From positions 1-40,878 of IMG/VR virus record IMGVR_UViG_2541047787_000006: 40,878 nt of DNA, one strand, 5' to 3'. Shown here in pieces: positions 1 through 40,878 of this stretch. Source of the DNA: a virus. Lineage: Duplodnaviria; Heunggongvirae; Uroviricota; Caudoviricetes. Under the pieces are notes generated by a model, which did no database searches, had not been told where the DNA came from, and saw only the letters and a program-made list of their open reading frames with translations. Position 1 is the stretch's first letter, and each line of letters starts with the position of its first letter. The translations under genes were made by a program, and so were the position numbers.

Positions 1-516
1 ATGAAATTTAAAAAATGTCTTCTGCCTGTGGCAATGTTAGCGTCATTCACTCTGGCAGGATGCCAGTCAAATGCTGACGATCATGCCGCCGATGTTTATC
101 AAACCGATCAACTGAATACCAAACAAGAAACTAAAACCGTTAATATTATTTCCATTCTTCCCGCAAAAGTTGCCGTAGACAACTCCCAAAATAAACGGAA
201 CGCACAAGCCTTCGGCGCGCTTATTGGCGCAGTCGCTGGCGGTGTTATCGGCCACAACGTCGGTTCTGGCAGCAATTCCGGAACGACGGCAGGGGCAGTT
301 GGCGGCGGAGCTGTAGGCGCGGCAGCGGGTTCTATGGTGAATGATAAAACCTTAGTGGAAGGTGTTTCTTTAACATATAAGGAAGGCACCAAAGTGTATA
401 CCTCTACCCAGGTGGGTAAAGAGTGCCAGTTTACGACAGGTTTAGCCGTTGTTATTACCACAACGTATAACGAAACGCGTATTCAGCCAAATACTAAATG
501 TCCTGAAAAGAGCTAA
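1..516 (+). CDS. Host lipoprotein with glycine-rich (glycine-zipper-like) segment
   Basis: Signal peptide with lipobox LAGC; Gly/Ala-rich stretch GALIGAVAGGVIGHNVG typical of SlyB/Pcp-like outer membrane lipoproteins; lies outside the prophage. Confidence 0.6.
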   Translation: MKFKKCLLPVAMLASFTLAGCQSNADDHAADVYQTDQLNTKQETKTVNIISILPAKVAVDNSQNKRNAQAFGALIGAVAGGVIGHNVGSGSNSGTTAGAVGGGAVGAAAGSMVNDKTLVEGVSLTYKEGTKVYTSTQVGKECQFTTGLAVVITTTYNETRIQPNTKCPEKS

Positions 517-531
517 TAATCAGGAGGAGTC

Positions 532-1071
532 ATGAAGAAAGTTTTTCTTTGCGCCATCTTGGCCTCCTTAAGCTATCCGGCTATCGCCTCATCATTGCAG
601 GATCAACTCTCTGCTGTAGCAGAAGCTGAACAGCAAGGTAAAAATGAAGAGCAAAGGCAGCATGACGAATGGGTCGCGGAGCGCAACAGGGAAATCCAGC
701 AAGAGAAGCAACGTCGCGCAAATGCCCAGGCCGCCGCTAACAAAAGAGCGGCAACGGCAGCAGCAAATAAGAAAGCTCGTCAGGATAAACTGGACGCCGA
801 AGCCTCTGCGGACAAAAAACGCGATCAAAGTTATGAAGATGAGCTACGCAGCTTAGAGATTCAGAAACAAAAACTGGCGCTGGCGAAAGAAGAAGCCCGC
901 GTTAAGCGAGAAAACGAATTTATCGATCAGGAACTGAAGCACAAAGCTGCGCAAACCGATGTGGTGCAATCTGAAGCTGACGCCAACAGAAATATGACTG
1001 AAGGCGGTCGCGATCTGATGAAAAGCGTGGGCAAAGCAGAAGAGAACAAATCGGACAGCTGGTTTAATTAA
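532..1071 (+). CDS. Secreted coiled-coil protein, host, function unknown
   Basis: AGGAGG RBS at 522-527; N-terminal signal peptide; highly charged Q/K/E/A-rich body. Confidence 0.55.
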   Translation: MKKVFLCAILASLSYPAIASSLQDQLSAVAEAEQQGKNEEQRQHDEWVAERNREIQQEKQRRANAQAAANKRAATAAANKKARQDKLDAEASADKKRDQSYEDELRSLEIQKQKLALAKEEARVKRENEFIDQELKHKAAQTDVVQSEADANRNMTEGGRDLMKSVGKAEENKSDSWFN

Positions 1072-1290: not shown

Positions 1291-1773
1291 CTATCTTGTC
1301 AGGGTGTCATACTGTTTTTCGCAGACTCTTCCGGCTTCGGCTGCCCGGTCAGCATACTCTGCCAGTTGTCTGTTTCTCTCGAGAGATTTGCTGAGCACGT
1401 CGGCAAGCAAAACTCCGGTGTCTGCGGCTGACGTCCCAGCGCCGACAATGGCGTTATACTGCCTGAGCTGCTCACGGATGGCAAAGAGCTGTTGCTGCAA
1501 CCGGACAGCGCGAGCGGCAGCATCAAGAGCATCATTGCGCGCCTGGTCGATCCTCTGCTGAGCTTCACGTTCATTGGTCGTTTTCTCCTGTTCGTAGTGC
1601 TGACGAACTCTCTCATCTTCAGCTTTGCGGTCTTCCTTCGCCTGCGCATACCCGGCGTTGTACTGACGACTTCCGTGTACATTCCAGGCTGCAACTCCTG
1701 ATATGACCAGAACAGCAAGCATCACCATGATAACCAACTGTTTCCTGTATGCTTTTGCGAATGCCCAGATCAT
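1291..1773 (-). CDS. Rz-like i-spanin
   Basis: N-terminal transmembrane segment, coiled-coil charged periplasmic domain; directly downstream of and overlapping the endolysin gene. Confidence 0.7.
1299..1535 (-). CDS. Rz1-like o-spanin lipoprotein embedded in Rz in another frame
   Basis: Internal start [13 protein letters not shown] gives a lipobox signal peptide (LSGC) followed by a Pro/Ser-rich body; wholly inside the Rz ORF in the +1 frame. Confidence 0.5.
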   Translation of the reverse strand: MMLLMLPLALSGCSNSSLPSVSSSGSITPLSALGRQPQTPEFCLPTCSANLSRETDNWQSMLTGQPKPEESAKNSMTP

Positions 1774-2399
1774 ACCGCCAGCACCTTACTGGCAGTGATG
1801 TACCGCGCGCGCCGGTCGTCGATGCCGTTCCGGCCACCATTGATAATCAGAGTTACACGTGCAATATCGCCGGTATACTTCATGCAACCTTTGCTGGAGA
1901 AGAACCACGCCGCGCTACGAGCCGCGTATTCGTCCTGCGCCAGCAGTTCAGGATTCTCCAGCAAGTCCACTTTCAAGCCGTTTCCGCAGTCACGATAGTT
2001 ATTCAAACCAGTAATCTGGATAAGTCCGCGACCTCGGTAATTCCAGCCATCGCCGGGGGCATTGTTCCCCATGCGTTTGCTGTATACCAGATTTGCGATC
2101 GCTCGCTGGCGCTCGAGTGGCAATGGTGGCTCACCAGCACGGCGACCCAGTGCATTAGCCTGCCCCTGAGTGAGACGCCCAGCCCGAACGAAGTTATCCA
2201 GTCCGCTGACGCTGTAGTTGAAATTCTCCTGCAACCGGGTGAAGCCCCCAGACTCATGCCCGACTTGAGCAATAAACATTGCCTGATCTTCTGCTTTGCT
2301 GATACCAAACTCTTTCATCGCAGAAGTTATATGCGAGAACCAGCGAGCGGACAGCACCTCGCTAATACCAGCAGCTCGCTGGAATTGCTTAATCTCCAT
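1770..2399 (-). CDS. Endolysin, glycoside hydrolase family 19 (chitinase-like lysozyme)
   Basis: Motifs [24 protein letters not shown] and WFF typical of GH19 phage endolysins; position in lysis cassette. Confidence 0.85.
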
Positions 2400-2697
2400 C
2401 TTTAGACCTCGTTATTTTGAAAATCTGAACGACGTTACCGCGCGTTTTAATAACCGCAGCAAGCATGACAGCATTGATAATGACCTCAGATAAATCCACA
2501 GCCATTGGCGTGCGTAACCAGATTGCATAAACGACACGAACAGGAATACTGGCCGCAGCAACAATCAGGAAATAAGCAAGCCACCCTCCCCATCTTCGGT
2601 GTTGAGAACCGTTGCGCCGGAATGTGACAACGCGAATTGCTATACCAGTACAAATAACTGCATTGGTGATTAGCAAAAAAAGCTCATGAGTTACCAT
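2389..2697 (-). CDS. Small lysis-cassette membrane protein (second holin or antiholin-like)
   Basis: 102 aa with 2-3 predicted transmembrane helices; sits between holin and endolysin, overlapping both. Confidence 0.45.
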
Positions 2698-3100
2698 CGT
2701 CGTTTCTCCCAGGCATTAAGTCGCGTGGATTATCAGAGCGGTGATAGAGCCATATTCCAATACGCACTGCTACAATCGCTGACACAAATGCGCCAGCAGA
2801 GAAGACAACCCCGTTCTCGAAAGAATCCTGCGTAATGGTAGGGATTAGACTGGCTATTCCTATAAGAATTGATGCTGTCGCTTTGTAGAAGAGAAGACCG
2901 CAAAGGAAGCTGAGAATAGCCAAGAATAACCGCCGTTTTATTGGATACTCAACTGCAGAGGTAACAAAAATTACCGCACCAGCAAGAGCACCAAGCGCGA
3001 CTTCTGGAGGAACCCCGGCAACAACAGAAGCCAGCGCACCAAGGCTAATCCCCTGATTAAGTGACTCCGTTGTCAGCGTGGTTGCCATAGTGACCACCAT
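2684..3100 (-). CDS. Holin
   Basis: 138 aa, multiple hydrophobic helices, charged C-terminus; first gene of the lysis cassette. Confidence 0.6.
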   Translation of the reverse strand: MVVTMATTLTTESLNQGISLGALASVVAGVPPEVALGALAGAVIFVTSAVEYPIKRRLFLAILSFLCGLLFYKATASILIGIASLIPTITQDSFENGVVFSAGAFVSAIVAVRIGIWLYHRSDNPRDLMPGRNDDGNS

Positions 3101-3285: not shown

Positions 3286-5532
3286 TTATGATATTTTCTT
3301 CCATGCAAATGCTGTAGTGCCAGTTGCTTTATACCACTCAAACTGACCAGCAGTTGTGTCAAGATATTCTTCTCCAATATATCTTGGAACTACATTGTTT
3401 ATTGGGTTTTGCGCCTGTTTCCTAACAAAGAAACGATCATCCCAAAGCTTTTGTGTTTCATAGTTTAGAAATGACATTCCAGCGATGGTTAATAATGGTG
3501 ATCCTGATGATTGATTTGAATTAATATACATACTAATCACATGCCATCCTCGTGATGCTATATGTATACGTGCCGATTTTTGAGTATCATACGATGAGTT
3601 TCTATCTATTGAAAGTGTATTATCTTTAACATTTAAGTTTAATGTTGCAGATGGTTTTGATTTAATATCACTATTAATAATTTCAACAACTCTATCATCA
3701 AGAGAATATTGTGATTGAGGAAGTCCAAAATCAAGCTCTATAGATAAAGCTGAATTTGCCACAATAATGCTTGGGGTGAAAATAAGATCATCCTCATCAG
3801 CGTAGAAGCATATAAACACTTTATTCCCATACTGGCTTGTTTCAACAACATAACCACCAGTGTAACTTGCTAACGGCGGGCTAACCATTGATGGTTTATT
3901 TAACTGAGTTCCCCATGCCCCATCCTTTAGCTTCATAGATGTTTCGAAAGTTCTTACATTAATATTTGTTCCTGATTTAACTTTCGTTGGGTTATTAAAT
4001 TTAGAAAGTAGAAAAGCAAAAACTTTTGCCGCAAGGTATTTATAACCTTCCTCACGAAAATGAACATTATCACTAAATCTTGTAGAGTCGATACCGTAAA
4101 AAACCTCTACACCGTCAAGAACTGGTATCCCGTATTGTTCTCCAATATTAAAAACAGCTTCTCTATAAGCATCAAGAAGCCTTACATTTGCACCATATTT
4201 TTTCTGTGGAGGTGGAGTTATCAAAATTACAGCAGCACCCTTTACAAGTTCTCTCGCAATTATTTTCTTATAATAAAAAATATAGTCTGATATTGACTGG
4301 TAAGGGCTGAATCCCTGTGCAGCATCATTTGTTCCGTACATGATAATAGTTAAATCACTATTAACATTTACATCCCAATCACCCCACCCTAATTTAGTAT
4401 TATCACCTGAATAGCCTTGGTTAATAACATTAATGGATGATGAAAATGCTTGCTGAAGATAGCCTTGCAACGCCTGAGGGTAAGTTGTCGCCGCCCTTGT
4501 TTTATTATGAACACGACCTGATGCTGTAGGAGTTGTATCTGGTGGAGTCGGTGCAATTATAGTGTCTTCTCCATATGTCAGGGAATCACCTCGGCAAACG
4601 ATGGTTATCGCGTCTGAATCACGTGCTACCTTTTCTGCATACTTGCTAAGATTTAGTCTCTGAAGCGCATGCAACTGCTTACCTGGAATTTTCTGGGTTC
4701 CGATATCAACTATGTCATTTTGAACAAGTTGAGAAGCGGAAACACCAGCAATACTTACATCACTGTTTACGTCAGAAAGATCACTGCGTAAAGACGCATC
4801 ACCCACACCTCTCCAAGCGCCAGGACCAACACCACCAGTAGTGGTAGGAGTTGATCCTGGAGGAACTACTTTGGGCAGTGGCCCGTCCCATCTGTAGTAT
4901 TCGCCGTTGCTTTCCCAGAGAAGAACATCGTTAAGATAGATGATGGTATTACCCAACTCAAAAGATTTCTTCGTGTTATAGCCATACAATCCATTTTCTA
5001 AGGTTTCAATAATGGTGCTAAGTATGGTACTAAATTTTGCATAAAGATCATCAGTATATTTTTTTGTAGCAGCATCTTGGGGAAGAGATGGATCACGAAG
5101 ATTTCTAATATAATTTGAAAGCGCGTCATAAAAAATTGCTACGTCATTTGGCTTTCTTAAAGCCAACTTATCATTTCTTAATGATTGTTGAATGAGCATA
5201 GTAAGTTTATCAAACGCATCCTCATGTACCTCAGCGAAGAACTTACCCTGATTACGTAAATCCGTTTCCTGAGTAGCTGGTAGTTCTCGTGATATAGATA
5301 TCTGATGACCGTTAGCCAACGCCTTCGAGAGAATTACATTACCGCCGTTGTACCCTCCTGCTCCGGTGACGATGTAATCTGTATCAAGAACCAGTACGTT
5401 TATATTCTCGTTAATGTCAACAACCTGTACTACCAGATCTGATTTTTTGAAGATCCTAAATTTGTAAGGGAATGTCGTCGTAACACCATTACCAGTGTAT
5501 TCGTTGTGGTTAACTTCGGTTGAGACCGTCAT
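3286..5532 (-). CDS. Tailspike / tail fibre with conserved podovirus N-terminal anchor and C-terminal SGNH (GDSL) hydrolase domain
   Basis: N-terminus EYTGNGVTTTFPYKF resembles the T7 gp17-type anchor; GDSLTYG, GTNDA and DNVHF motifs of SGNH esterases in the middle; AT-rich receptor-binding portion. Confidence 0.85.
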   Translation of the reverse strand: MTVSTEVNHNEYTGNGVTTTFPYKFRIFKKSDLVVQVVDINENINVLVLDTDYIVTGAGGYNGGNVILSKALANGHQISISRELPATQETDLRNQGKFFAEVHEDAFDKLTMLIQQSLRNDKLALRKPNDVAIFYDALSNYIRNLRDPSLPQDAATKKYTDDLYAKFSTILSTIIETLENGLYGYNTKKSFELGNTIIYLNDVLLWESNGEYYRWDGPLPKVVPPGSTPTTTGGVGPGAWRGVGDASLRSDLSDVNSDVSIAGVSASQLVQNDIVDIGTQKIPGKQLHALQRLNLSKYAEKVARDSDAITIVCRGDSLTYGEDTIIAPTPPDTTPTASGRVHNKTRAATTYPQALQGYLQQAFSSSINVINQGYSGDNTKLGWGDWDVNVNSDLTIIMYGTNDAAQGFSPYQSISDYIFYYKKIIARELVKGAAVILITPPPQKKYGANVRLLDAYREAVFNIGEQYGIPVLDGVEVFYGIDSTRFSDNVHFREEGYKYLAAKVFAFLLSKFNNPTKVKSGTNINVRTFETSMKLKDGAWGTQLNKPSMVSPPLASYTGGYVVETSQYGNKVFICFYADEDDLIFTPSIIVANSALSIELDFGLPQSQYSLDDRVVEIINSDIKSKPSATLNLNVKDNTLSIDRNSSYDTQKSARIHIASRGWHVISMYINSNQSSGSPLLTIAGMSFLNYETQKLWDDRFFVRKQAQNPINNVVPRYIGEEYLDTTAGQFEWYKATGTTAFAWKKIS

Positions 5533-5636
5533 GTTAAATCTCCAGATAGTCGCAGCACCCGTTGCGCCGCATATCTGGTTATTCTATTACCTGAAAAACC
5601 ACATATGGATAGAAAGACTGTAAATACGAATAGATA

Positions 5637-5651
5637 TTACCTTTCAGGTGA
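5637..5651. promoter_or_regulatory. Operator-like palindrome TTACCTTTCAGGTGA
   Basis: Matches the TTACC-N5-GGTAA family found in the immunity region; an extra TTACC half-site lies at 5587-5591. Confidence 0.45.
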
Positions 5652-5690
5652 TTTGCAAAACGTGCTGGATAGCAAACAAATTATTTGATA

Positions 5691-5706
5691 CTGTATAAAT
5701 ATACAG
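5691..5706. promoter_or_regulatory. LexA (SOS) box CTGTATAAATATACAG
   Basis: Perfect CTGT-N8-ACAG dyad with AT-rich spacer, flanked as TACTGTATAAATATACAGTT, about 20 bp upstream of the 5728 start codon and next to a TTGATA hexamer. Confidence 0.6.
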
Positions 5707-5727
5707 TTATTGCATGGAGAAGATAAG

Positions 5728-5985
5728 ATGCAGCAGTATCACTATCCACTGGAAGACGGATTTACCGAAAGGATTCACACGCCGGGAGGCGTCAGGTCAC
5801 TGGTGGAGGGATCGCACTTGATGAAATTACTCCGGGATCTCGATAAGGATGGATTTAATGTCGATGGCCCACTTGCCGAACTGACTGCACTGATTAACTA
5901 CGTCACCAGCTCACAGATGTCTATGCAGGATCTGCAAACACATCTCGACTATTGTGCCGAACAATTACGAAAACAAACCCGGTAA
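5728..5985 (+). CDS. Small protein homologous to the C-terminal domain of the antirepressor at 7373-8029; candidate SOS-induced antirepressor
   Basis: GGAGA RBS 7 nt upstream; product IHTPGGVRSLVEGSHLMKLL..DLQTH aligns with [25 protein letters not shown] of the 7373 protein; the ORF track start at 5710 is TTG without an RBS. Confidence 0.5.
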   Translation: MQQYHYPLEDGFTERIHTPGGVRSLVEGSHLMKLLRDLDKDGFNVDGPLAELTALINYVTSSQMSMQDLQTHLDYCAEQLRKQTR

Positions 5986-5992
5986 ATTTAAA

Positions 5993-6008
5993 GGCCGCAA
6001 GAGCGGCC
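5993..6008. terminator. Hairpin GGCCGC-AAGA-GCGGCC in the 24-bp gap between convergent genes
   Basis: 6-bp GC stem with tetraloop exactly between the stop codons at 5985 and 6010; no long T-run. Confidence 0.4.
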
Positions 6009-6009
6009 A

Positions 6010-6516
6010 TTAACAGTCGTAAAATTCCGGGTCCCACAAACTTGCATCGCGCGGCATGGATTCTAAATTTTTCAGCCGCAAAATTCTGTCACACTCGACA
6101 AGAAGTTTTTGTTTTTGTTCGTCAATTTCTACTTTTTTGTGTGCTGGCTCATCCCAGTAATCCAGAAGAAACGCATGTCGCTCAGACGTTACAAGATAAA
6201 TCACATACACATCACTGGTTGGTATTTTTTTATGCTTGTTGGTGGCCTTGTCTTTCTTCCCGGATGCCCAGTTTTTCCAGCATTGTTCCGTACCGCTCTC
6301 ACCAAACTTGTCAGTATAGTTTCCGATGTTTACGTGAACGTGGCGTATGTGATATTCCAGCATCTCTTTCGGTGGATCCCGAAACAGAGTGTCCTTTCCG
6401 AAATCCTTATGATGACCGTAGCGCCAGTGATCTATGAACGCGTTTTTGATAGGTATTAGCTCAGGGTCCTTCCCAAAAATTCCAGGGTGAACCAACCCCT
6501 GGAATTTATTCAGCAT
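6010..6516 (-). CDS. YafO-like toxin-domain protein (putative mRNA interferase-type toxin), module 1
   Basis: Motifs FGKD..F.DP, RHVHVN, IPTSD, VIYLVT and EPAHK resemble the YafO family as recalled from memory; paralogous to 8331-8876; start ATG at 6516 overlaps the upstream stop (ATGCTGAATAA). Confidence 0.45.
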   Translation of the reverse strand: MLNKFQGLVHPGIFGKDPELIPIKNAFIDHWRYGHHKDFGKDTLFRDPPKEMLEYHIRHVHVNIGNYTDKFGESGTEQCWKNWASGKKDKATNKHKKIPTSDVYVIYLVTSERHAFLLDYWDEPAHKKVEIDEQKQKLLVECDRILRLKNLESMPRDASLWDPEFYDC

Positions 6517-6925
6517 CGTCGTAGAGCTCCTGAGCCATATCTTCGGCAGTGCGTGCAAACATCCTGCGCGAGATTGCATGAGATTTCTCGACGGACATCT
6601 TTGGGACCTCATGCATAACATTTTTGGGAGTTGTGTAATAGCCTATTACAATTTTCACACCTGACTTATGATTAATATCAGCATAATATACTTCTTGTTC
6701 AGACGTTTCACGACGAACATAATCTGCCAGTTTTCCACATTTAAATTCCCCTCCCTGATGTTTTAAAATCTCCTCAACTGCACTATTTTCAGTGAAATAC
6801 CGAATAAGAAATTTCTGTCCAGTCTCTTCAGCATGAGGTATAACAGTATTATTGGAAGCCCGAACAATGGCCTTACTCAATATTTCATGGTCTTTATTTT
6901 TTTCTGATTTCCTCAAATGCTGCAT
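6506..6925 (-). CDS. Upstream partner of toxin-like gene (candidate antitoxin or immunity protein), no recognisable family
   Basis: 139 aa from the ATG at 6925; overlaps the downstream start by 11 nt; C-terminal tail KMSVEKSHAISRRMFARTAEDMAQELYDDAE resembles the tail of the 8177 small ORF. Confidence 0.4.
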   Translation of the reverse strand: MQHLRKSEKNKDHEILSKAIVRASNNTVIPHAEETGQKFLIRYFTENSAVEEILKHQGGEFKCGKLADYVRRETSEQEVYYADINHKSGVKIVIGYYTTPKNVMHEVPKMSVEKSHAISRRMFARTAEDMAQELYDDAE

Positions 6926-6961
6926 TACTGTAGCTCTCTTCGTGTTCACGGGCACCCCCAA

Positions 6962-6976
6962 CTACCTCTAGGGTAA
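6962..6976. promoter_or_regulatory. Operator-like palindrome CTACCTCTAGGGTAA upstream of module 1
   Basis: TTACC-N5-GGTAA family member about 40 bp upstream of the 6925 start on the minus strand; TTGCCA and TAGAAT hexamers immediately upstream on that strand. Confidence 0.45.
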
Positions 6977-7057
6977 ACATTCTATCGAAAGTATACGCAT
7001 ACTGGCAAAAAAATAGGCAGGTATTTTCTGAAATGGGATCAATCAAACCACATAGGG

Positions 7058-7101
7058 TTGAAATAACGTGAGTTATGCATTTATTATTACCTTTGCGGTA
7101 A
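7058..7101 (+). promoter_or_regulatory. Sigma70-like promoter (TTGAAA-N17-TTATTA) with overlapping operator TTACCTTTGCGGTAA at 7087-7101
   Basis: Hexamers read directly; perfect TTACC-N5-GGTAA dyad at the predicted transcription start. Confidence 0.5.
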
Positions 7102-7192
7102 ATTTACATCGCACTCCTCTTGTGCCATAGTAATCGGGCACTGGCAAAATCCAGTGCCGGGATTGGTCTCCCGGATTACTAAGTGGCGCATA

Positions 7193-7214
7193 CCACGCCA
7201 GACGTGGTTTTTTT
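7193..7214 (+). terminator. Rho-independent terminator inside the antirepressor leader
   Basis: Stem CCACG / CGTGG, loop CCAGA, followed by seven T; about 120 nt downstream of the 7058 promoter and 160 nt upstream of the 7373 start. Confidence 0.55.
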
Positions 7215-7372
7215 ATGCGTATAGCACAGTCATGCCAGAATTATGGTGGGCTGAATGGGGGTCCGAAAGGACGCCGGTACCACTTAGGCCGGTAAGACCA
7301 ACTCCGTTCAGTTCACCACCATCTGATTGGTCTCAGCGGTGGTGATGTAATTCGCTAAGTGGAGACGCCATC

Positions 7373-8029
7373 ATGAACGCTCAACTCATCCCCGTATTCA
7401 ACGGCACTATATCTAACGAAACAGCCCTACTTTGTAATGCCCGCGATCTGCACGCTTTTTTAGGTGTTAAAAAGGTGTTTGCAGCATGGATTACAAATCG
7501 CATATCAGAATACGAATTCATTGAAAATCAAGACTATATTTTGCTTTCCAATTTGGGAAAGCAAACATCTGGTAGAGGCGGCCACAACCGCAAAGAGTAC
7601 CACCTTACCCTTGATACAGCCAAAGAGCTGGCGATGGTCGAGCGTAACGAAAAAGGTCGCCAGGTGCGACGCTACTTCATTGAATGCGAGAAACGTTTAA
7701 GACAACAAGAAACAAAAGTGGAGAAGGTCTTGTCAGGCTTCATGCCCGCCATTATGGAGGCGATCAAGCTGGAAGACAAAAAAGAATACAGTGCCCCGCT
7801 GAAGCCCGGCTACCGCAGCCTGATTCATTCTCCGTCTGGTGTTCTCGGCCTGACGGAAAACTCACTGCTGATGAATCTGCTGAACCAGTTACAGGAAGAC
7901 GGGCACGACGTATCGGGCGCGGCGGCGGAGCTGACCACCATGTTCTGCTACATCGTCGGTGTGAGCAAATGCCTGCGTGATATCCAGACCCACGCGGAGT
8001 ACATCAACGACAAGGCTGGGTTCTTCTGA
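7373..8029 (+). CDS. Antirepressor, AntA/AntB-type N-terminal domain plus C-terminal domain shared with the 5728 protein
   Basis: N-terminal [34 protein letters not shown] matches the AntA antirepressor pattern; GGAG RBS at 7361. Confidence 0.7.
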
Positions 8030-8073
8030 CGGGCGGCGGCACAGGGATGTGCCTTTAAATAATTCTGTACAGA

Positions 8074-8116
8074 TTGCAGACTGTGGGTGAATAGCGTACT
8101 ATTACCTCAAGGGTAA
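8074..8116 (+). promoter_or_regulatory. Sigma70-like promoter (TTGCAG-N17-TACTAT) with overlapping operator TTACCTCAAGGGTAA at 8102-8116
   Basis: Same promoter-operator architecture as at 7058 and 35639. Confidence 0.45.
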
Positions 8117-8176
8117 ACGGATTGGTTTCATTTTTATTAATCCGTGTAATGAACTTATGAGATATGAGGTAATGTC

Positions 8177-8356
8177 ATGCGAAACGAAAAATTGCAGATG
8201 CGTAGAGCGCAAGCTGCCGCAAGACGTTCTTTCAATGGAAGCGTAGAGTACGTAAAAGTTACTATGACAAAAGATCACGCAAGTCGCGTATCCAGCGCTT
8301 TCTTTGATTCTCGTAACAATAAGGAAAATTATGAGTTCGTCTGCGTCGCAGAATGA
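8177..8356 (+). CDS. Small 59-aa protein overlapping the start of toxin-like gene (candidate antitoxin), module 2
   Basis: Not in the ORF track (under 60 aa); GAGG RBS at 8166-8169, ATG at 8177; overlaps the 8331 gene by 26 nt; tail KVTMTKDHASRVSSAFF...VAE resembles the C-terminus of the 6506-6925 product. Confidence 0.35.
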   Translation: MRNEKLQMRRAQAAARRSFNGSVEYVKVTMTKDHASRVSSAFFDSRNNKENYEFVCVAE

Positions 8357-8876
8357 TAAAAATCAAATTGTCAGATATAAGGGTCGAGTATTGCATACGC
8401 AAAATTTCTCGGCCCTTTGTGCATCTGATCTTGAGCTGAAGAAAGTATCTGATGCCTTTGCCCAGTATTGGAAAACGGGATACCATCCATCTCTTGGTAA
8501 AGATGCTGCATTTGCTCGTCCGACAGAAATGCTTAAACTAAATGTCAGGCATACTCATGTCGATAACCAAGACTATATTCCAGAAGATAGTGATAAAAAA
8601 CACACTGGTAAAAAATCATCTTGGGATGCATGGAAAAATATAGCGTCTGTACAAGTAAAATGCATACCAACAAGTGATTGCTTTTTAGTTTATTCGGTAA
8701 ATCACAATCGTGATGCGCTGGTTATGTTTTTTGTTGACGCAGATGCTCACAACATAACTGAGCAAGAAGAGTTTAAAGAGGCAGCAATCACTATCAGTTA
8801 TCAATTCTTTGAGAAAACAAAAACAGAACCAATGCCTTTAGAAGAAGATCTTTTTTCTGATAAATGGAAGGAATAG
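8331..8876 (+). CDS. YafO-like toxin-domain protein, module 2 (paralog of 6010-6516)
   Basis: AAGGA RBS 5 nt upstream of the ATG at 8331; shares W.TGYH, LGKD..F.RP.EML, RHTHVD, IPTSD, LVYSV and DAHN motifs with the 6010 product. Confidence 0.45.
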   Translation: MSSSASQNDKNQIVRYKGRVLHTQNFSALCASDLELKKVSDAFAQYWKTGYHPSLGKDAAFARPTEMLKLNVRHTHVDNQDYIPEDSDKKHTGKKSSWDAWKNIASVQVKCIPTSDCFLVYSVNHNRDALVMFFVDADAHNITEQEEFKEAAITISYQFFEKTKTEPMPLEEDLFSDKWKE

Positions 8877-8968
8877 CCCGCGGCGCGGGCTTTTTTGTGG
8901 ACGAAACAAAAGTCAGTGCTACACTCATTAACGCCACATTGAGGTGGCTTATAGATGGAAATTTCACA

Positions 8969-9130
8969 ATGAAAAAAGCATTTGCTGCACTGTTCGTTTT
9001 GTTGTCTCTGGTAGCTTCAACTCAGGCCTTTGCCGGTCGTTGTCAGCACGACAGCGATACTGCCGCTGACGGCTCCCGCTGCGGTGGGCGTTCTGCGGAT
9101 TCCCGCCCGGGCGGCGGTGGCATTCGTTAA
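8969..9130 (+). CDS. Small secreted Cys-containing peptide (53 aa), function unknown
   Basis: Internal ATG at 8969 gives signal peptide MKKAFAALFVLLSLVASTQAFA followed by a Gly/Arg/Cys-rich tail; terminator-like hairpin directly downstream. Confidence 0.35.
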   Translation: MKKAFAALFVLLSLVASTQAFAGRCQHDSDTAADGSRCGGRSADSRPGGGGIR

Positions 9131-9136
9131 AAACAA

Positions 9137-9152
9137 GGCCGCGAAAGCGGCC
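9137..9152. terminator. Hairpin GGCCGC-GAAA-GCGGCC between convergent genes, followed by palindrome GTGACATGTCAC (9154-9165)
   Basis: GC stem with GNRA-like loop; stem nearly identical to the hairpin at 5993-6008. Confidence 0.4.
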
Positions 9153-9166
9153 TGTGACATGTCACG

Positions 9167-9727
9167 CTACATTGATATATGATTCATAAAGTAGCTTAAA
9201 GATTTACTTCCCAGAAAAGAAATTTCTTTTCCTGGATATGTCGCAATAATTGAGCATGACTTATCCCCGTTAGAGGTAACAAATCCTGAATAACCTACTT
9301 GTTCTTTACCATTTTGTTGCTTGGCTAAAAAGTAGAGGTAGCTTATCTTTTTGCCCTCTGGGTAAAACTCTGCCAAACCAGTATCGGTGATTGAATATTT
9401 TATTCTCCCGCCTTGAGTAACGTTTTCCATCTCAAGTTTAGCTATGTCTTTTCTGTTGTATTCAGCATTGATTTTCCTTTCGAAATCAATATTGTTTTCA
9501 AATGAGTAGGAAGCAACAGTCTGAATAGATGGGAACACGTTTATCTGGATGCCTCCACAGTCGGCACAGGTATAAAGGTATGAATCAGATGGAATCCCCA
9601 TAAAAGAAAACTGAGTTACCTTAAATTTATCGCTATCTCCAAAGTATTGAAGTTCGCATTTAACATTTTGCCCTGCAAAAGAAAATGCAGACATCAATAT
9701 TGAAACAAAAAATATAATTGCCTTCAT
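9167..9727 (-). CDS. Secreted or periplasmic protein of unknown function (moron)
   Basis: Signal peptide MKAIIFFVSILMSAFSFA; 4 Cys; markedly AT-rich gene between core-protein gene and cargo island. Confidence 0.55.
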   Translation of the reverse strand: MKAIIFFVSILMSAFSFAGQNVKCELQYFGDSDKFKVTQFSFMGIPSDSYLYTCADCGGIQINVFPSIQTVASYSFENNIDFERKINAEYNRKDIAKLEMENVTQGGRIKYSITDTGLAEFYPEGKKISYLYFLAKQQNGKEQVGYSGFVTSNGDKSCSIIATYPGKEISFLGSKSLSYFMNHISM

Positions 9728-9729
9728 TA

Positions 9730-12282
9730 TTATTTACCTAGCATGAACTGCGATGGTGGGATCAGAAAGTCGTTACCCTGCTCACGCTCAACACGGCGCT
9801 GATAACGCTCAAGAGAGCCTGGGTCAAGGGCATCCTGTATCCGGTTCAATATTAAACCATTCATCGCCGTACGAAGCCAGAACACGTTGAGGAATGGCGT
9901 ATTGTCAAGTGCCGTGCGATACCAGTCACCCAAATCTGCATCCCCTCTCGTGGTCTGCTGGAGCAGCGTGATAATGCTGTCAGCGTTCGATGCTGCTGGC
10001 CCCATTAGCGACGTAACCGGCCCGGCCCCCATGCGGTTGACCTCGCCAAACATGAAGTCACCCAAGATGCCAAGACCGCCCCCCTGAGATGCGGCTGCGA
10101 GAAACGTCTTGGCATCTGCCGGGCGTGGTGTTTGCCCTTTCAGCATGAGTTTTGACTGCATGGAGATATAACCAAACATAGTCGCCCAGACAAAGAGGTT
10201 TGCAGCACCAAGGAAAGCCCCCTTCCCGTTACGTAGCAGCGCATTCGTCAGCGATCCGGTTTTCGACTCACCAAGCCCAGCAGGAATATAACCACGCCCG
10301 AATACTTCGCGTCCTAGTACGTTCTGCATGAAGCTTGCAGTGAACGATTTGTACTGACCAGCGAATCGTATTGCTTCCCCAGCCACCGTTCCTGGCACCG
10401 TGCCCATCTTCATAAACGCCTGCGTGCGATCGCCAGGCTCTGACATGGCGATATTCAGGCGGTCAAGGATGTAGCCGCGCAACTGCCCTTCCAATTGATC
10501 GCGTGCGTCAGCGATAGCGCGCTGCGTTGGTTTGATCCCCTTACTCTCTACATAACCGGCAATCACTTCGTCAGGCACGCCGCGGATGCCGCTGGTCGTC
10601 ATGAACTTACGACCTTCGCTATCGGCCATGTCCATGTTGCGAAAAATTTCCCACTCACGTTCGCCAATACCGTGCATATCCAGCACGCGTCGCAGGTCTT
10701 CCGGTAGACGCGCATGAGACTGGTCAGCATTCTTTGCAAGCCAGTTGGTTATCATCATGGCGTTGCTGTTGCGACCGCTCTCGGTCCAGAAGTTCATGAG
10801 GTTGTACTTAAAGAAAAGCTGCTGCGCGCGACCAAGCTTTCCATTCAGCGTGTCATCACCAGATATGCGTCGGATGATTTCCTGCGTCATGGAGTCGGAA
10901 TAAACTCCGATAGAGGAAAGGATCTCTTTCTGCTCCGCGCTGTTGTAACGCGTGAAGCGGCCTCTCATAGCACCAAGCAACGCCTGCATAAAATTCTGCC
11001 CTTGGTAGCGCATCTCGGTAGCGGCGATAGGCACGTCGTTAAACGATGAGATTACCGCGCCACCAAGTTGGCTCATACGCAACCAGCCGCGTACAGCCGC
11101 CGACGCATTGGCCCAGCCTACGCTGCCAGGAATATTTAGCGAGCCGTCAACCTGCGGCATTACGGTACGGTTAATGCGACGCACCTTCGTCATGTAGTCA
11201 GCCAACGCTGCCGGTCTTCCGGATTTGCTGATATCTTCAGCAATGGCGTCCGTCAGGTACTTAAACATGTTCTGTGGGTTAGTGCCCAGTACGCGCATCA
11301 TGCCCGTTGTGCGGGCAGCGCTGTTTAAGCCACCAAACAGCGCTTCTCGCAGGCTGCCGGTGCCGAATTGCTGGTTGTACTCGTGCCACGAGATACCATC
11401 TTTGAAGTGCAAAATTCGCTCTTGGCTGGCGCGTTTAGCTGCGTTCGCCGATCCCTTAAAGCCATTCATCCAATCGGGCTTTTCAGATGTAAGATGCACG
11501 CCGGAAGCCAGCCCGTTATAAATGTTACGCATGAACTGCTCGCGGTCAGCCACGCCGTCAAAAGTGCGCTCATCAAGGCGCGGGAGAATAGCATTTCGCC
11601 ATGCTTCATAACCTGCGGCGCGGATCTTCATGATGTCGTGTGACTGGCGCACTATATATCCCGGCTCTTTGCGTATCCATGCCCCGGCGCGGTTCTCATC
11701 AATGCGCGCAGTTTCCTGCCATTTCATGATGATTTGTGCAGCGCTTACGGATTGCTTTGTCATACCGTCAGTTGACTGCCCGCGCCCTATGCGCCACATT
11801 GCATCGGCAATTTCCCGGTCATTGCTGCCGCTGGCGATGAATTGCACCAGCCCGGCACGGTCAAAATCGTAGTTGATACCGGAATGATACTTGCCGCGCA
11901 GTTGCGCCACCTCCGAAGATACCGACCGGCGGGCGCCGGTACGCGCATCGTTGCGGCCAACCAGCATTGCTTCAAGCCCGATATCCGGGCGGTCTTTCCA
12001 GATAGTACGAAGCTCTCTAAGTCGTTGTGCGGCAATACGGGCGTTGATTGCCTTATTGCGAGCCTCAATCTGTTTTGCCAGCATATCGGCATTGCTCAGT
12101 TCTTCCGCTGCGCGCATCGCGGCCTCTTCCAGAGACAGCGCCTCATTGGTCGCCAGAATTCGCCTAGTGGTGTCGTTCATGTCACGCACCAGCGACTCCA
12201 TCTCATCGGAAGAAAGCTCGCGACCAGCGGCAGCATTTACACTGCGCTCGCACTGCGTCAAAAATTCGTTTGCTGCCATCAC
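9730..12282 (-). CDS. Large internal virion (ejection) protein
   Basis: 850 aa; last gene of the internal core block in T7-like gene order; no recognisable enzymatic motif. Confidence 0.55.
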   Translation of the reverse strand: MMAANEFLTQCERSVNAAAGRELSSDEMESLVRDMNDTTRRILATNEALSLEEAAMRAAEELSNADMLAKQIEARNKAINARIAAQRLRELRTIWKDRPDIGLEAMLVGRNDARTGARRSVSSEVAQLRGKYHSGINYDFDRAGLVQFIASGSNDREIADAMWRIGRGQSTDGMTKQSVSAAQIIMKWQETARIDENRAGAWIRKEPGYIVRQSHDIMKIRAAGYEAWRNAILPRLDERTFDGVADREQFMRNIYNGLASGVHLTSEKPDWMNGFKGSANAAKRASQERILHFKDGISWHEYNQQFGTGSLREALFGGLNSAARTTGMMRVLGTNPQNMFKYLTDAIAEDISKSGRPAALADYMTKVRRINRTVMPQVDGSLNIPGSVGWANASAAVRGWLRMSQLGGAVISSFNDVPIAATEMRYQGQNFMQALLGAMRGRFTRYNSAEQKEILSSIGVYSDSMTQEIIRRISGDDTLNGKLGRAQQLFFKYNLMNFWTESGRNSNAMMITNWLAKNADQSHARLPEDLRRVLDMHGIGEREWEIFRNMDMADSEGRKFMTTSGIRGVPDEVIAGYVESKGIKPTQRAIADARDQLEGQLRGYILDRLNIAMSEPGDRTQAFMKMGTVPGTVAGEAIRFAGQYKSFTASFMQNVLGREVFGRGYIPAGLGESKTGSLTNALLRNGKGAFLGAANLFVWATMFGYISMQSKLMLKGQTPRPADAKTFLAAASQGGGLGILGDFMFGEVNRMGAGPVTSLMGPAASNADSIITLLQQTTRGDADLGDWYRTALDNTPFLNVFWLRTAMNGLILNRIQDALDPGSLERYQRRVEREQGNDFLIPPSQFMLGK

Positions 12283-25904: not shown

Positions 25905-25919
25905 ATTACCTTTCAGGTA
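25905..25919. promoter_or_regulatory. Operator palindrome TTACCTTTCAGGTAA, with TTGACA hexamer at 25883-25888
   Basis: Perfect TTACC-N5-GGTAA dyad; nearly identical to the site at 5637. Confidence 0.45.
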
Positions 25920-26242
25920 AGCAAAGAGTTCATTCCGGTTATTAACCTGACTGGCTTGTCGTTAAATTGAACAGGTGGAGTGAGCTTTTATTTTGAGCAG
26001 TACGGCGTATGGCACATGCGCCGATAGCGGTCTGGATACGTTTAAGGGGCACCCTCCCTTGCTCGAGCAAACGAACCAGGTAGCCGGAATGTGCAAGTCG
26101 AGCGGTTTTATTCCGCGCACGGGGATTCACCATCCCGGCGATTCGGTGTGACGCCTCGGAAGAGACGAGGGTGCAACGATGAGAGCATTTATGGAGCCGC
26201 GACAAAGTGTGGCGCCTTAACAGGCTAAGTGCTCTCAGCGTT

Positions 26243-28460: not shown

Positions 28461-29089
28461 TGATTACCATCCTGACGTTCTTTGAGTCGCTTCCTGGCTG
28501 CTGCTATGCGATCAGCAATTGTCACATTCACATTAACATCCAGGCGTTCTTTGAATGCGTTGACGTCGACGTGCTTACCAATCAGTTCGAGGTTTTTCAC
28601 CTTGTCGGGCCATTTCACCTTCTTCAGGATATGCTCGACATCCTCAACAGAGAGATCCGCCTCGCCATTCTCTTTTTGCAGAGAGGCCTGAGTCGTCTTG
28701 ATAGTAGCGATATCCATCGCGCTGAGAGAGGTGCGCCATACCTTAGGCCACTCAGCGATCGGCTTCATCCCGCCGTCGTCGTTCAAGATATCCAGGACAT
28801 CCATCTGGTCGATCTCTACCAGGCGCATGAGGACGTAATCAGCGCTGACGCGCATTCGTTTGTTGCGCTCCTCCATCAACTCGGCAATCCGTTTTTGAAT
28901 GCGTTCATCGCGCATCATGACACTGGCTTTAACTGCCGCTGTATTTGGGGAGAATCCTGCGTTAATCGCTGCCTGAGTCTGGTTTTCAGGCGTTTTGATG
29001 TATGACTGGCAATAAGCCTCCTGCATTGCTGTTAGTGGCTTAAATTGCGTTGATTTGCGTTTATAGGTTTTAGGTTCAGCAGGCATCAT
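28457..29089 (-). CDS. Terminase small subunit
   Basis: N-terminal HTH-like region TAMQEAYCQSYIK...AAINAGFSPNTAAVKAS typical of small terminases; start chosen at the internal ATG with a GGTGG RBS rather than the ORF track start at 29185. Confidence 0.65.
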   Translation of the reverse strand: MMPAEPKTYKRKSTQFKPLTAMQEAYCQSYIKTPENQTQAAINAGFSPNTAAVKASVMMRDERIQKRIAELMEERNKRMRVSADYVLMRLVEIDQMDVLDILNDDGGMKPIAEWPKVWRTSLSAMDIATIKTTQASLQKENGEADLSVEDVEHILKKVKWPDKVKNLELIGKHVDVNAFKERLDVNVNVTIADRIAAARKRLKERQDGNQ

Positions 29090-29095
29090 AACCAC

Positions 29096-29128
29096 CGTGG
29101 TAATAGTTACCGTTGTGGTAATAGTACC
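29096..29128. repeat. Tandem direct repeat GTGGTAATAG(T)TACC x2 immediately upstream of the small terminase gene
   Basis: Two adjacent copies, each an everted GGTAA-N3-TTACC arrangement. Confidence 0.5.
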
Positions 29129-32496: not shown

Positions 32497-32561
32497 GATT
32501 TACCCCTGAGGTAATTAAAAACCACATAAGACATGAAATCAATAGATTTTAGAATATTTTA

Positions 32562-32576
32562 TTACCAAACAGGTAA
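32562..32576. promoter_or_regulatory. Operator palindrome TTACCAAACAGGTAA
   Basis: Perfect TTACC-N5-GGTAA dyad in the gap between the P-like and DUF1064 genes. Confidence 0.45.
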
Positions 32577-32613
32577 TTATCGAGACGTAAAAAAATGCGC
32601 TATCGCGCTGGTA

Positions 32614-34808: not shown

Positions 34809-34844
34809 AGCTATTGCCTGATATTTATTTCAGATAATAAATAT

Positions 34845-34907
34845 TCACCTATAAGGTAACAAAAATCAAGGATAGTTACCTATGGGGTGCATTTACCTGT
34901 TGGGTAA
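34845..34907. promoter_or_regulatory. Immunity-region operator cluster: TCACCTATAAGGTAA (34845-34859), TTACCTATGGGGTGC (34876-34890), TTACCTGTTGGGTAA (34893-34907)
   Basis: Three copies of the TTACC-N5-GGTAA dyad within the 154-bp gap between the cro-like and repressor-like genes. Confidence 0.6.
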
Positions 34908-34962
34908 TATTGCTTTAAATTGAATCATCTACTGATTCATATATGAGGCGATTTTCCAGAAA

Positions 34963-35547
34963 ATGAAAAGTATCCAGGACGTCCGCAGGCAAAATCTCAA
35001 CGACTTGATCGACCGTGAATTCAATGGTGTTCAGACGCGGATGGCAGAAAAACTTGGAACTCAGGCAAATCTGGTAAACCGCTGGGCTCTTGGCAAGAAG
35101 GTTATCGGCGACCAGGTTGCGCGAAAAATTGAAGCTGCCGCAAATAAACCCCGTAACTGGCTTGATATCGATCGCTCGCTTTCTCAGGAGGGTTTTCAGC
35201 CTGTCGGCCCAAGCGACATTGGTCAGCTGGCGGCTCACAACCTGGAACGCTGGATGAGCGAAAGCCGCGACCTTTCAACTCAGGGAAAACTTCACCGCGC
35301 ATCCGGCGTCGCCCAGGTGACAATCAGCCGCCTGTTAAACAATGAGGTCAGCGTTTCCATTTCCACCCTGGAGAATGTTGCATCCGCATTCGGGCGTCAC
35401 GGCTATGAATTACTGATTCACCCGCACGACCCTGCGACTATCAACTATGATCGCTCGCGCTACGCATTGTTACCCGAAACCGAGAAAGCAAAGATCGAAA
35501 GTTACATTGAATTTGTCATCAACCAGAACGAAAAAAACAAACAATAA
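34963..35547 (+). CDS. Prophage repressor candidate with two HTH motifs and no peptidase domain
   Basis: Two HTH-like segments (QANLVNRWALGKK and GVAQVTISRLLNNE); no recognisable S24-type cleavage module; divergent from cro. Confidence 0.55.
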   Translation: MKSIQDVRRQNLNDLIDREFNGVQTRMAEKLGTQANLVNRWALGKKVIGDQVARKIEAAANKPRNWLDIDRSLSQEGFQPVGPSDIGQLAAHNLERWMSESRDLSTQGKLHRASGVAQVTISRLLNNEVSVSISTLENVASAFGRHGYELLIHPHDPATINYDRSRYALLPETEKAKIESYIEFVINQNEKNKQ

Positions 35548-35591: not shown

Positions 35592-35604
35592 ATTGCCTGT
35601 TAGA

Positions 35605-35626
35605 TTACCCGCCGGGTAATTTTTTT
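35605..35626 (+). promoter_or_regulatory. Perfect operator dyad TTACCCGCCGGGTAA followed by a T-run (operator and/or second terminator)
   Basis: TTACC-N5-GGTAA at 35605-35619 then seven T; dual reading possible. Confidence 0.45.
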
Positions 35627-35638
35627 AACTCATATCTA

Positions 35639-35681
35639 TTGACATCAAACCAGATACGCATAATTATTACCTCAACGGTAA
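35639..35681 (+). promoter_or_regulatory. Early rightward promoter (TTGACA-N16-TAATTA) with overlapping operator TTACCTCAACGGTAA at 35667-35681
   Basis: Consensus -35 hexamer, AT-rich -10, operator at the predicted transcription start. Confidence 0.55.
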
Positions 35682-35700
35682 CAGACCGAGGTAACAAGTT

Positions 35701-39627: not shown

Positions 39628-40878
39628 TTATTCCCCCGCCATCCACTTCTCAAACTTCGACGGGGAGAACGGAATCAGATCCGTATGCTCCCCGTTAATC
39701 CAGGAATCAATCATATCGGCCCACTGCTGCAACATGTAGGCGCGCTGTCTGGCGTATTCCGCTTTGTTATATACGGCGCGCACACCTTTCTGCTCATGTG
39801 CCAGAGCCTTTTCAATCCAGTCTGAAGGATAACCAGCCTCATGCAACAACGTACTGGCTGTACGACGCATATCGTGTACGGTGAAGTCCTGAATATGCTC
39901 ACCATCTTCATTTATTATTTTCACCGTTCTGTCGATCAGAGAGTTCAGCGCGGCATTAGATAATGGCTTCCGGAAATTGTAACGACCAGGAACCAGATAT
40001 TCACTTCCACCAGCGCACATCTGCAACCCGACCAATATATCCTGTGCCTGTTTAGGCAGGTAAATAACGTGCGCCCGGCTTCCCTTCATGCGGTCTGAAG
40101 GAATTGTCCATGTCCATTTTTTAAAATCTATTTCATCCCACGTTGCATTGGTGAATTCGCCTTTACGAACCATAGTGATAAGCACCAGCCTTAAAGCCAT
40201 TTTCATAGTGCCCATAGCACCAATGGCATCCAGCGTACGGAAGAACAGGCCAATTTCTTCTGGTGTCAGTGTTCGCTCTCGTGGTTTAAATATGGCGATA
40301 GACGAAGGTTTAATGTCAGCCGCAGGATTAAACAAACCATGACCACGGTCATTGGCGTGACGGTATACGCTGCTGATGATCTCCCTTGCCTGTACTGCTG
40401 TTGCCCGACCACCGCGTTCGACAATCCGGTCACACAAATCACGAACCATCGATGTGGTAATTTCAGTCATCATTTTGTTGCCAAGAACTGGAAGTATGTC
40501 ACGGTCGATCACCGCCTGCTTCATTGCGCGGGTACTGTCAGCCAGGATGACGTGTTTCATATAACTGTCGGTATGTACCGTAAACGTCTCGGCACCACGA
40601 ATCTTTTTGATACCGTCACGTTTAGCCGCAGCCGGTGACTGGCCTGCTTTAAGCAGCTTCTTTGCAGCAATCAGTTCTTCTCGCGCTTCTGCCAGGCTGA
40701 TACCGTCACGCCCATACTGCCCGATTACCAGTGTTTCGCGGCGACCGTTGATACGGTAGTCATAGCGAAACGAGACCGTGCCTGACGTAAGCACAGCTAC
40801 ATACAGCCCGTCACGATCGGAGACCTTGTACAGTTTGTCCTGCGGCTTGAGGTTTTTTAATTTTGTATCGGTAAGCAC
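39628..40878 (-). CDS. int: Tyrosine integrase, P4-type; N-terminus truncated by the window edge
   Basis: N-terminal LTDTKLKNLKP arm-binding signature; C-terminal catalytic region with HDMRRTA and the tyrosine-containing segment VRAVYNKAEY; ORF runs to the last base of the window. Confidence 0.85.
   Translation of the reverse strand: MLTDTKLKNLKPQDKLYKVSDRDGLYVAVLTSGTVSFRYDYRINGRRETLVIGQYGRDGISLAEAREELIAAKKLLKAGQSPAAAKRDGIKKIRGAETFTVHTDSYMKHVILADSTRAMKQAVIDRDILPVLGNKMMTEITTSMVRDLCDRIVERGGRATAVQAREIISSVYRHANDRGHGLFNPAADIKPSSIAIFKPRERTLTPEEIGLFFRTLDAIGAMGTMKMALRLVLITMVRKGEFTNATWDEIDFKKWTWTIPSDRMKGSRAHVIYLPKQAQDILVGLQMCAGGSEYLVPGRYNFRKPLSNAALNSLIDRTVKIINEDGEHIQDFTVHDMRRTASTLLHEAGYPSDWIEKALAHEQKGVRAVYNKAEYARQRAYMLQQWADMIDSWINGEHTDLIPFSPSKFEKWMAGE

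Follow-up and report, generated by a model that had tools for sequence, protein, structure and literature searches.

The region between positions 5533 and 9729 of IMG/VR record IMGVR_UViG_2541047787_000006, a viral sequence of 40,878 nucleotides (nt) that we analysed as a whole and refer to as the window, is probably an anti-immunity (induction-switch) region that belongs to an epsilon15/phiV10-like prophage and has grown through exchangeable cassettes. Judging from the closest phage records by DNA match (EC.W1-9, TL-2011b, phiv142-3, ZX5 and phiV10), the window is an Escherichia coli prophage related to epsilon15 and phiV10, i.e., to the podovirus genus Uetakevirus; a first identification as a P22-like prophage was dropped, since the DNA matches point to relatives of phiV10 and epsilon15. 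A sequence-only reading had described the region, hereafter the island, as a block of cargo genes on both strands between the tailspike gene and a core gene, and both its position and its mixed orientation are borne out by the list of open reading frames (ORFs) and by direct reading. The parts named in that reading are also in place, namely, a perfect LexA box in front of the gene described as SOS-controlled, an antirepressor gene of the AntA type, two YafO-like toxin genes in the two toxin-like modules, two products with signal peptides and two near-identical GC-rich hairpins at the two convergent gene junctions. Homology or direct inspection of the sequence establishes which part is which, where the operators lie, which RNA stretches are complementary, that the hairpin is duplicated and that the region varies, as described below.

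The first element of the switch is the small antirepressor gene, ant. Its product, Ant, is 88% identical to the protein of Salmonella phage SPC32H annotated as 'ant: anti-repressor protein' (tblastn) and 84% identical to epsilon15 gp19; in PDB, it matches 5D50 chain E ('Anti-repressor protein') at an E value of 4e-47. The LexA box is one of only 3 sites in the window with the pattern CTGT-N8-ACAG and is kept upstream of ant in 14 of the 14 E. coli loci examined, as well as in epsilon15 and SPC32H; in the loci from Cedecea and Serratia (L017-L019), which do have Rep operators, no strict match to it was found ahead of the small ant homologue. The window also encodes a homologue of the SPC32H repressor, Rep, in which Pfam and PHROG searches recovered two helix-turn-helix regions only and found no S24 peptidase (autocleavage) domain. 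Two publications describe a switch in which self-cleavage of LexA leads to synthesis of the antirepressor, which inhibits the repressor by protein-protein contact (PMC7380047), and an Ant tetramer that breaks up the DNA-binding tetramer of Rep, the latter recognizing palindromic sites (PMC9638917). By analogy, SOS induction of the prophage studied here would cleave LexA and allow small Ant to be made, and Ant would inactivate the non-cleavable Rep; the contact between Ant and Rep and the need for Ant in SOS induction are predicted by homology to SPC32H. The similarity to SPC32H and epsilon15 extends to the location of ant beside the tailspike gene with a LexA box in front, to a Rep homologue devoid of the autocleavage domain and to the same 17-bp palindromic operator. 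Accordingly, the SOS-box gene and the antirepressor, which had been counted as cargo, belong instead to an induction switch homologous to the Ant/Rep pair of SPC32H and kept across the relatives examined.

The operator, ATTACC-N5-GGTAAT, occurs 11 times in the window with at most 1 mismatch, versus 0.075 occurrences expected from composition-preserving shuffles, and 42 times with at most 2 mismatches (both strands counted), versus 6.7 expected. In epsilon15, the counterpart of the site at 5636, ATTACCTTACAGGTAAT, bears the GenBank annotation of a 'repressor' binding site. Four Rep operator sites, starting at positions 5636, 6961, 7086 and 8101, are located within the island (Table 1). Further copies, often paired, are found outside of it: in the rep-cro intergenic region (34844-34908, with sites at 34844 and 34892), just downstream of rep and before recET-like genes (35604-35682, with sites at 35604 and 35666), upstream of the small terminase gene (29088-29122, with sites at 29088 and 29106) and at two other intergenic spots (25905-25921 and 32499-32577, the latter with sites at 32499 and 32561). 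This distribution suggests a dispersed repressor regulon resembling that of P1 C1.

Besides small ant, the island encodes a second, larger antirepressor, in which an N-terminal AntA domain is followed by a C-terminal domain homologous to small Ant: residues 137-210 are 42% identical to small Ant and match chain E of PDB 5D50 with an E value of 4.6e-14. Across loci, the C-terminal domain of large Ant is kept, and the N-terminal domain is swapped among AntA, BRO-N and ORF6N. Overexpression of the BRO-N-type homologue in phage ZX5 pushed the phage to lytic growth (PMC9782041). Large ant is preceded by an IsrK-like leader RNA and a C4-type antisense RNA, both scoring above the Rfam gathering thresholds; a match to the Rfam c4-a1b1 model (39.9 bits) is below its gathering score of 46.7. 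Two loops of the C4 RNA, CCACTTAG (7280) and AGACCAA (7295), stay single-stranded in the fold of minimum energy and are exactly complementary, respectively, to CTAAGTGG, present at 7179 (b1) and 7355 (b2), and to TTGGTCT, present at 7163 (a1) and 7327 (a2). By direct reading, b2 adjoins the GGAG ribosome-binding sequence of large ant. In the mechanism that we propose, the C4 loops would pair just upstream of the large ant start codon, beside this ribosome-binding sequence, and large Ant would serve as the second element of the switch, with the same Rep-binding C-terminal domain as small Ant and a Rep operator on its promoter.

This arrangement resembles immI of P1 and P7 (c4-icd-ant) and the isrK-orf45-anrP locus of Gifsy-1 in the order of a repressor-controlled promoter, a leader with a1 and b1, a C4-type RNA, a2 and b2, and the antirepressor gene, as well as, for P1 and Gifsy-1, in the position of a2 and b2 beside the ribosome-binding site. 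In Gifsy-1, translation of the antirepressor is under the control of two transcripts, a leader RNA that is terminated and an mRNA produced by read-through (PMC4825925). Unlike in P1 immI, no recognizable icd gene was found in the window and b2 is directly beside the ribosome-binding sequence of ant; moreover, the repressor of the window is of the SPC32H Rep type rather than P1 C1, and the C-terminal domain of the antirepressor has the SPC32H Ant fold. An ORF at 7232-7345 (37 residues from an ATG, or 63 from an upstream GTG) overlaps the C4 RNA, ends 27 nt before large ant and is placed like orf45 of Gifsy-1 or icd of P1, the similarity being one of position only.

To delineate the variable parts of the island, we compared the annotated regions of 16 related phages and prophages, complemented by a BLAST presence matrix, and surveyed the operators of 18 related loci. 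The parts that are kept comprise ant and its promoter with the LexA box, the leader with IsrK and C4, the C-terminal domain of Ant and the gene for a 53-residue peptide with its terminator; the remaining genes fall into three slots. Slot A, on the minus strand between ant and large ant, is empty or contains a YafO-like pair or the gene for a 242-residue protein. Slot B, on the plus strand after large ant, contains YafO-like pairs of two kinds, DUF4760 or DUF2335 proteins, or various proteins without a name. Slot C closes the late operon on the minus strand and contains genes for a 186-residue protein, a 283-residue protein, a pair of 98- and 123-residue proteins, a P22-like arc/ant pair or a membrane protein of 46-64 residues. 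The contents of the slots differ among the 18 related loci even when the core gene is at least 99% identical, and every occupied slot A and slot B has an operator upstream of the cargo, including those in Cedecea and Serratia. In 19 of 19 loci, the window included, each promoter of slots A and B has its -10/+1 region covered by a Rep operator. None of 5,426 complete E. coli genomes contains 80% or more of the island, the best (strain JNE25-001) reaching 75%; the flanking core gene is present at 99% identity or higher in 61 complete E. coli genomes, more than 500 E. coli genomes match an anchor made of the tailspike N-terminus and ant, and strains with an identical core protein carry different islands. 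The comparison with related prophages, which the sequence-only reading had proposed as a check, thus yielded a variable island next to a near-identical core flank, and not the same gene content in all relatives. In some relatives, slot C holds a further antirepressor (L014, 5163-6108; L002, 6600-7784; L013, 5599-7329), one being a second, reversed AntA gene with its own Rep operator and two being P22-like arc/ant pairs, so that a single prophage can hold up to three antirepressors.

The two hairpins are stable, with predicted folding energies of -14 to -18 kcal/mol, and on the minus strand they have U-rich tails. Epsilon15 and SPC32H have a single GGCCGC-N4-GCGGCC hairpin between ant and gp18, with the 3' end of ant on its left and GTGACATGTCAC on its right. 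As judged from these flanks, the likeness of the hairpins of the window is not due to chance, the two being copies of the ancestral ant-gp18 terminator. Since hairpin 1 keeps the ant flank and hairpin 2 keeps the GTGACATGTCAC flank, the 3.1-kb block 6009-9136 lies between two copies of the ancestral terminator. Whereas SPC32H and epsilon15 have only ant and a small membrane-protein gene at this position (approximately 0.66 kb), the window has approximately 3.1 kb extra between the terminator copies, including the second, larger antirepressor. The left hairpin copy is absent where slot A is empty; where slot A is filled, cargoes of different kinds border on one and the same hairpin. In slot B, the sequences of different loci part immediately after the operator. 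Because the loci diverge at the operator and the cargoes abut the hairpin, the cassettes are bounded by the operator on one side and by the terminator on the other. The palindrome next to hairpin 2 could act as an additional stem or bind a protein; epsilon15, SPC32H and the majority of the E. coli loci examined have it in place, and EC.W1-9 and strain ST648 lack it.

Table 1. Features of the island and its surroundings (positions in the window; promoter-like sites are given as -35 element, spacer length and -10 element).
Feature	Position	Strand	Description
Host lipoprotein genes	1-1071		Left part of the window
Lysis cassette	1291-3100		Left part of the window
Tailspike gene	3286-5532	-	Tail_spike_N and SGNH/GDSL domains; left flank of the island
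Rep operator ATTACCTTTCAGGTGAT	5636-5652		1 mismatch; between tailspike gene and ant, abuts the ant promoter region; kept in all loci examined
LexA (SOS) box TACTGTATAAATATACAGTT	5690-5709		Perfect; upstream of ant; direct reading
ant (small antirepressor)	5728-5985	+	85 residues; epsilon15 gp19 homologue; homology to SPC32H ant and PDB 5D50 chain E
Hairpin 1, GGCCGC-AAGA-GCGGCC	5993-6008		Terminator at the ant/YafO-like-1 junction; keeps ant-side flank
YafO-like-1	6010-6516	-	YafO-like/RelE-superfamily toxin, 168 residues; slot A; PHROG 1651
139-residue partner	6506-6925	-	Putative antitoxin; overlaps YafO-like-1 start by 11 nt; PHROG 9503
Rep operator	6961-6977		Directly downstream of -10 in promoter-like site TTGCCA-18-TAGAAT (6961-7008, -); slot A
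Rep operator	7086-7102		Overlaps TATTAT -10 of promoter-like site TTGAAA-18-TATTAT (7058-7102, +); IsrK/C4-Ant unit
IsrK-like leader RNA	7138-7214	+	Own terminator; Rfam isrK, 67.7 bits (gathering score 50)
a1; b1	7163-7169; 7179-7186	+	Inside the IsrK-like leader
C4-type antisense RNA	7239-7323	+	Rfam C4 RF01695, 61.2 bits (gathering score 45)
a2; b2	7327-7333; 7355-7362	+	C4 targets just upstream of the large ant start codon
Large antirepressor	7373-8029	+	N-terminal AntA (Pfam, E = 4e-26); C-terminal domain homologous to small Ant
Rep operator	8101-8117		Overlaps TACTAT -10 of promoter-like site TTGCAG-17-TACTAT (8074-8117, +); resident promoter of slot B
59-residue ORF	8177-8356	+	Putative antitoxin by position only; overlaps YafO-like-2 start
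YafO-like-2	8331-8876	+	YafO-like/RelE-HigB-fold toxin, 181 residues; slot B
Rho-independent terminator	8875-8891	+	After YafO-like-2
53-residue peptide gene	8969-9130	+	Secreted or membrane-anchored; PHROG 3117 and 14503
Hairpin 2, GGCCGC-GAAA-GCGGCC	9137-9152		Keeps GTGACATGTCAC flank; with the palindrome (9137-9165) forms the terminator of the minus-strand late operon
Perfect 12-bp palindrome GTGACATGTCAC	9154-9165		Directly beside hairpin 2
186-residue protein gene	9167-9727	-	Secreted; slot C cargo; PHROG 11983
Core gene	9730-12282	-	850 residues; PHROG 684 match; right flank of the island
rep (prophage repressor)	34963-35547		Rep homologue; PDB 5D50 chain A ('Repressor') match, E = 4e-42

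In the island of the window, slots A and B each hold a YafO-like toxin gene of the RelE/HigB fold behind an overlapping partner gene, and slot C holds the gene for the 186-residue secreted protein. YafO-like-1 and YafO-like-2 are 31% identical and share a PHROG family. YafO-like-2 matches the Pfam family YafO_toxin at 25.7 bits (cutoff, 25); no Pfam family matches YafO-like-1, neither protein has an NCBIfam match, and homologues of YafO-like-1, which was found in 4 of the 16 loci, are named YafO family toxin in RefSeq. The RelE/HigB fold was found in the toxins, and His, Arg and Tyr residues of the catalytic type are invariant in toxin homologues from different genera. Homologues of YafO-like-2 with 60-67% identity occupy the same slot, behind the operator, in similar prophages of Cedecea and Serratia. 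Homologues of the 139-residue partner are variable in their N-terminal part and invariant in their C-terminal 35 residues, a pattern that suits a toxin-binding tail. The 59-residue ORF has no family match, and its pair with YafO-like-2 is also present in TL-2011b, as gp45/gp44. We do not claim homology between the 139-residue partner family and the slot B partners compared with it, namely, the 59-residue ORF and a 108-residue protein of strain JNE25-001, as the hhalign E values (0.12 and 0.065) are not significant. Compared with YafNO and other type II toxin-antitoxin (TA) pairs of the RelE/HigB superfamily, the toxins of the window are larger (168-181 versus about 90-130 residues), their partners fall outside the known antitoxin families, and the promoters carry a phage repressor operator; these are putative TA pairs. 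Literature searches on DUF4760 and on phage-borne YafO returned nothing relevant. An inverted repeat, ACGGATT...AATCCGT (8118-8146), closely follows the Rep operator within the leader of the second toxin pair and could form an RNA structure or be an autoregulatory site for the partner protein.

The signal peptides of the two secreted products were read as MKKAFAALFVLLSLVASTQAFA and MKAIIFFVSILMSAFSFA, each followed by G. The 53-residue peptide gene is present at 98-99% identity in 12 of the 16 loci and is nearly invariant among the E. coli relatives; the PHROG 14503 category of its product is 'moron'. Followed by the late-operon terminator, it would form the third element of the conserved backbone of the region. 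The 186-residue protein gene was detected in 5 of the 16 loci and has homologues only in prophages of Enterobacterales. It starts 2 nt after the stop codon of the core gene and hence probably belongs to the late operon. The protein has no Pfam match and no named homologue, and a match to T5 Llp in a search of PDB sequences (E = 0.27) was discarded as a chance match of signal peptides. No Rep operator was found upstream of either the 53-residue or the 186-residue gene.

Because a Rep operator covers the -10/+1 region of each promoter, the cargo of slots A and B is probably repressed in the lysogen, as are the antirepressors. Infection or induction would turn this cargo on along with the early genes, to act in lytic-phase accessory functions. 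We infer binding of Rep at the operators, activity of the toxins and lytic-phase expression of the cargo from these features; candidate roles of the toxins, which are guesses, would be shut-off of host translation or competition between co-induced prophages. A more far-reaching version, which we put forward as a tentative possibility, is that the slots are fixed expression sites, each made of a resident promoter with a Rep operator and a terminator hairpin, in which swapped-in genes are expressed only upon loss of repression, and that the toxin pairs are induction-coupled weapons rather than a defence expressed in the lysogen. If this were the case, the toxins would serve, for example, to shut off host translation or in a contest with prophages and satellites induced by the same SOS signal, and the long residence of YafO-like-2 in phages of Escherichia, Cedecea and Serratia would reflect a lytic-phase function tied to the phage lineage.

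Several observations weigh against the proposed switch with induction-controlled cargo. Repression of the cargo by Rep is predicted from operator position only, and two of the operators are imperfect, that at 6961 having 2 mismatches and that at 5636 having 1; the latter could, moreover, serve the divergent tailspike promoter. Prophage-borne TA pairs often serve in defence or addiction and are made in the lysogen. Neither partner protein matches an antitoxin family (YafN/Phd-YefM, RelB and similar) in Pfam, PADLOC or NCBIfam, and the AlphaFold2 model of the 139-residue partner is poor (pLDDT, the predicted local distance difference test score, of 48) except for the C-terminal helix. Finally, expression of the operator-free 53-residue and 186-residue genes may well take place in the lysogen or at a late stage of infection.

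These points bear on the alternative that the region is a defence or lysogenic-conversion island, in which the TA pairs and the secreted proteins are made by the prophage and cause abortive infection, superinfection exclusion or a change of the cell surface. Indeed, the sequence-only reading had considered it the most likely site for such a system, and the gene content does vary between nearly identical flanks, several of the cargo genes are low in GC, and toxins of the RelE/HigB fold can act in abortive infection; the two proteins with signal peptides lack a Rep operator, one of them being assigned to the 'moron' category, and a role in the lysogen is possible for both. However, none of the island proteins matches a defence model: PADLOC, applied to 6 island proteins and 4 cargo proteins of relatives, and NCBIfam, applied to all island proteins, gave no match to defence systems. 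The operators on all slot A and slot B promoters predict silence in the lysogen, and these slots lack the repressor-free promoter of their own that characterizes morons; control of the cargo by the operator argues against lysogenic conversion and weakens the case for a defence role in the lysogen. Furthermore, the occurrence of YafO-like-2 at 60-67% identity in the same slot of Cedecea and Serratia prophages better fits a gene tied to the phage lineage than fast-turnover defence cargo, and in this phage family the genes for O-antigen conversion are found across the tailspike gene from the island. Thus, the variable cargo predicted by the sequence-only reading is there, but its assignment to defence or conversion runs against the operators on the slot A and slot B promoters and the lack of defence matches, and we consider this alternative unlikely.

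Less likely still is that the cassettes are selfish or neutral passengers, i.e., TA addiction modules and orphan genes that gather at a recombination-permissive operator-hairpin junction and have no function for phage or host: mosaic boundaries exactly at the operator and the hairpin, the many unrelated genes found in the same slot and the lack of any cassette in epsilon15 and SPC32H would be expected, but the ORFs are intact, the catalytic-type His, Arg and Tyr are invariant across genera, as are the C-terminal 35 residues of the partner protein, the slot is filled in nearly all E. coli relatives, and each cassette keeps a well-placed promoter and operator.

Every regulatory part of the induction switch has a known counterpart, namely, the Rep/Ant pair of SPC32H, the operator of epsilon15 and the C4 and IsrK RNAs of P1 and Gifsy-1, and the toxins have theirs in the RelE family. 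The mosaic nature of the region has been apparent in published comparisons of Uetakevirus genomes (PMC9782041). We did not find a description in the literature of the fixed slot architecture, of the duplicated terminator as a cassette boundary or of the consistent placement of a repressor operator before the cargo, and these represent modest additions to what is known. At the level of the whole locus, the closest parallel outside of the lineage is the immI/sieA region of P22, where an antirepressor and accessory genes are located between the ejection-protein genes and the tailspike gene. In both short-tailed temperate phages the antirepressor locus lies between the gene for the last injected or core protein and the tailspike gene, and slot C of the relatives TL-2011b and strain 2013C_3963 is occupied by a P22-like arc/ant pair. 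The two differ in phage lineage and in control, which involves Mnt, Arc and the sar RNA in P22 but Rep, LexA and the C4 RNA here.

The island illustrates how an AT-rich, mixed-strand and toxin-bearing block can resemble a defence island: here, half of the block consists of the induction switch of the prophage itself. The position of the repressor operator can help to tell genes expressed in the lysogen from lytic-phase accessory genes, and the conserved operators and the duplicated terminator provide anchors for mining several hundred E. coli prophages for accessory genes, as well as for testing phage-borne RelE-like toxins during induction.

The base composition of the island is a patchwork, heterogeneous gene by gene. 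The overall GC content is 43.2%, compared with 49.4% for the whole window, and ranges from 35% in the 186-residue protein gene, the lowest in the island, through 37.5% in YafO-like-2, 39% in the gene for the 139-residue partner, 48% in small ant and 49% in large ant, to 58% in the 53-residue gene. The claim that the island is lower in GC than the flanking structural genes therefore holds for the core genes (55-58%) but not for the tailspike gene (38.1%), which, with 27% GC at third codon positions, is the most AT-rich gene near the island.

As for the remainder of the window, host lipoprotein genes fill its beginning, which places the left end of the prophage near 1100-1290. The right part comprises the immunity and replication region and an integrase gene cut by the window end (39628-40878). 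The SGNH/GDSL esterase domain of the tailspike suggests deacetylation or cleavage of a surface polysaccharide, and the receptor-binding parts of the relatives' tailspikes are quite different, being of the endosialidase, GH28 and beta-helix types. The lysis genes directly follow the tailspike gene, with no O-antigen-modifying gene at this place, unlike in phiV10, TL-2011b and SPC32H.

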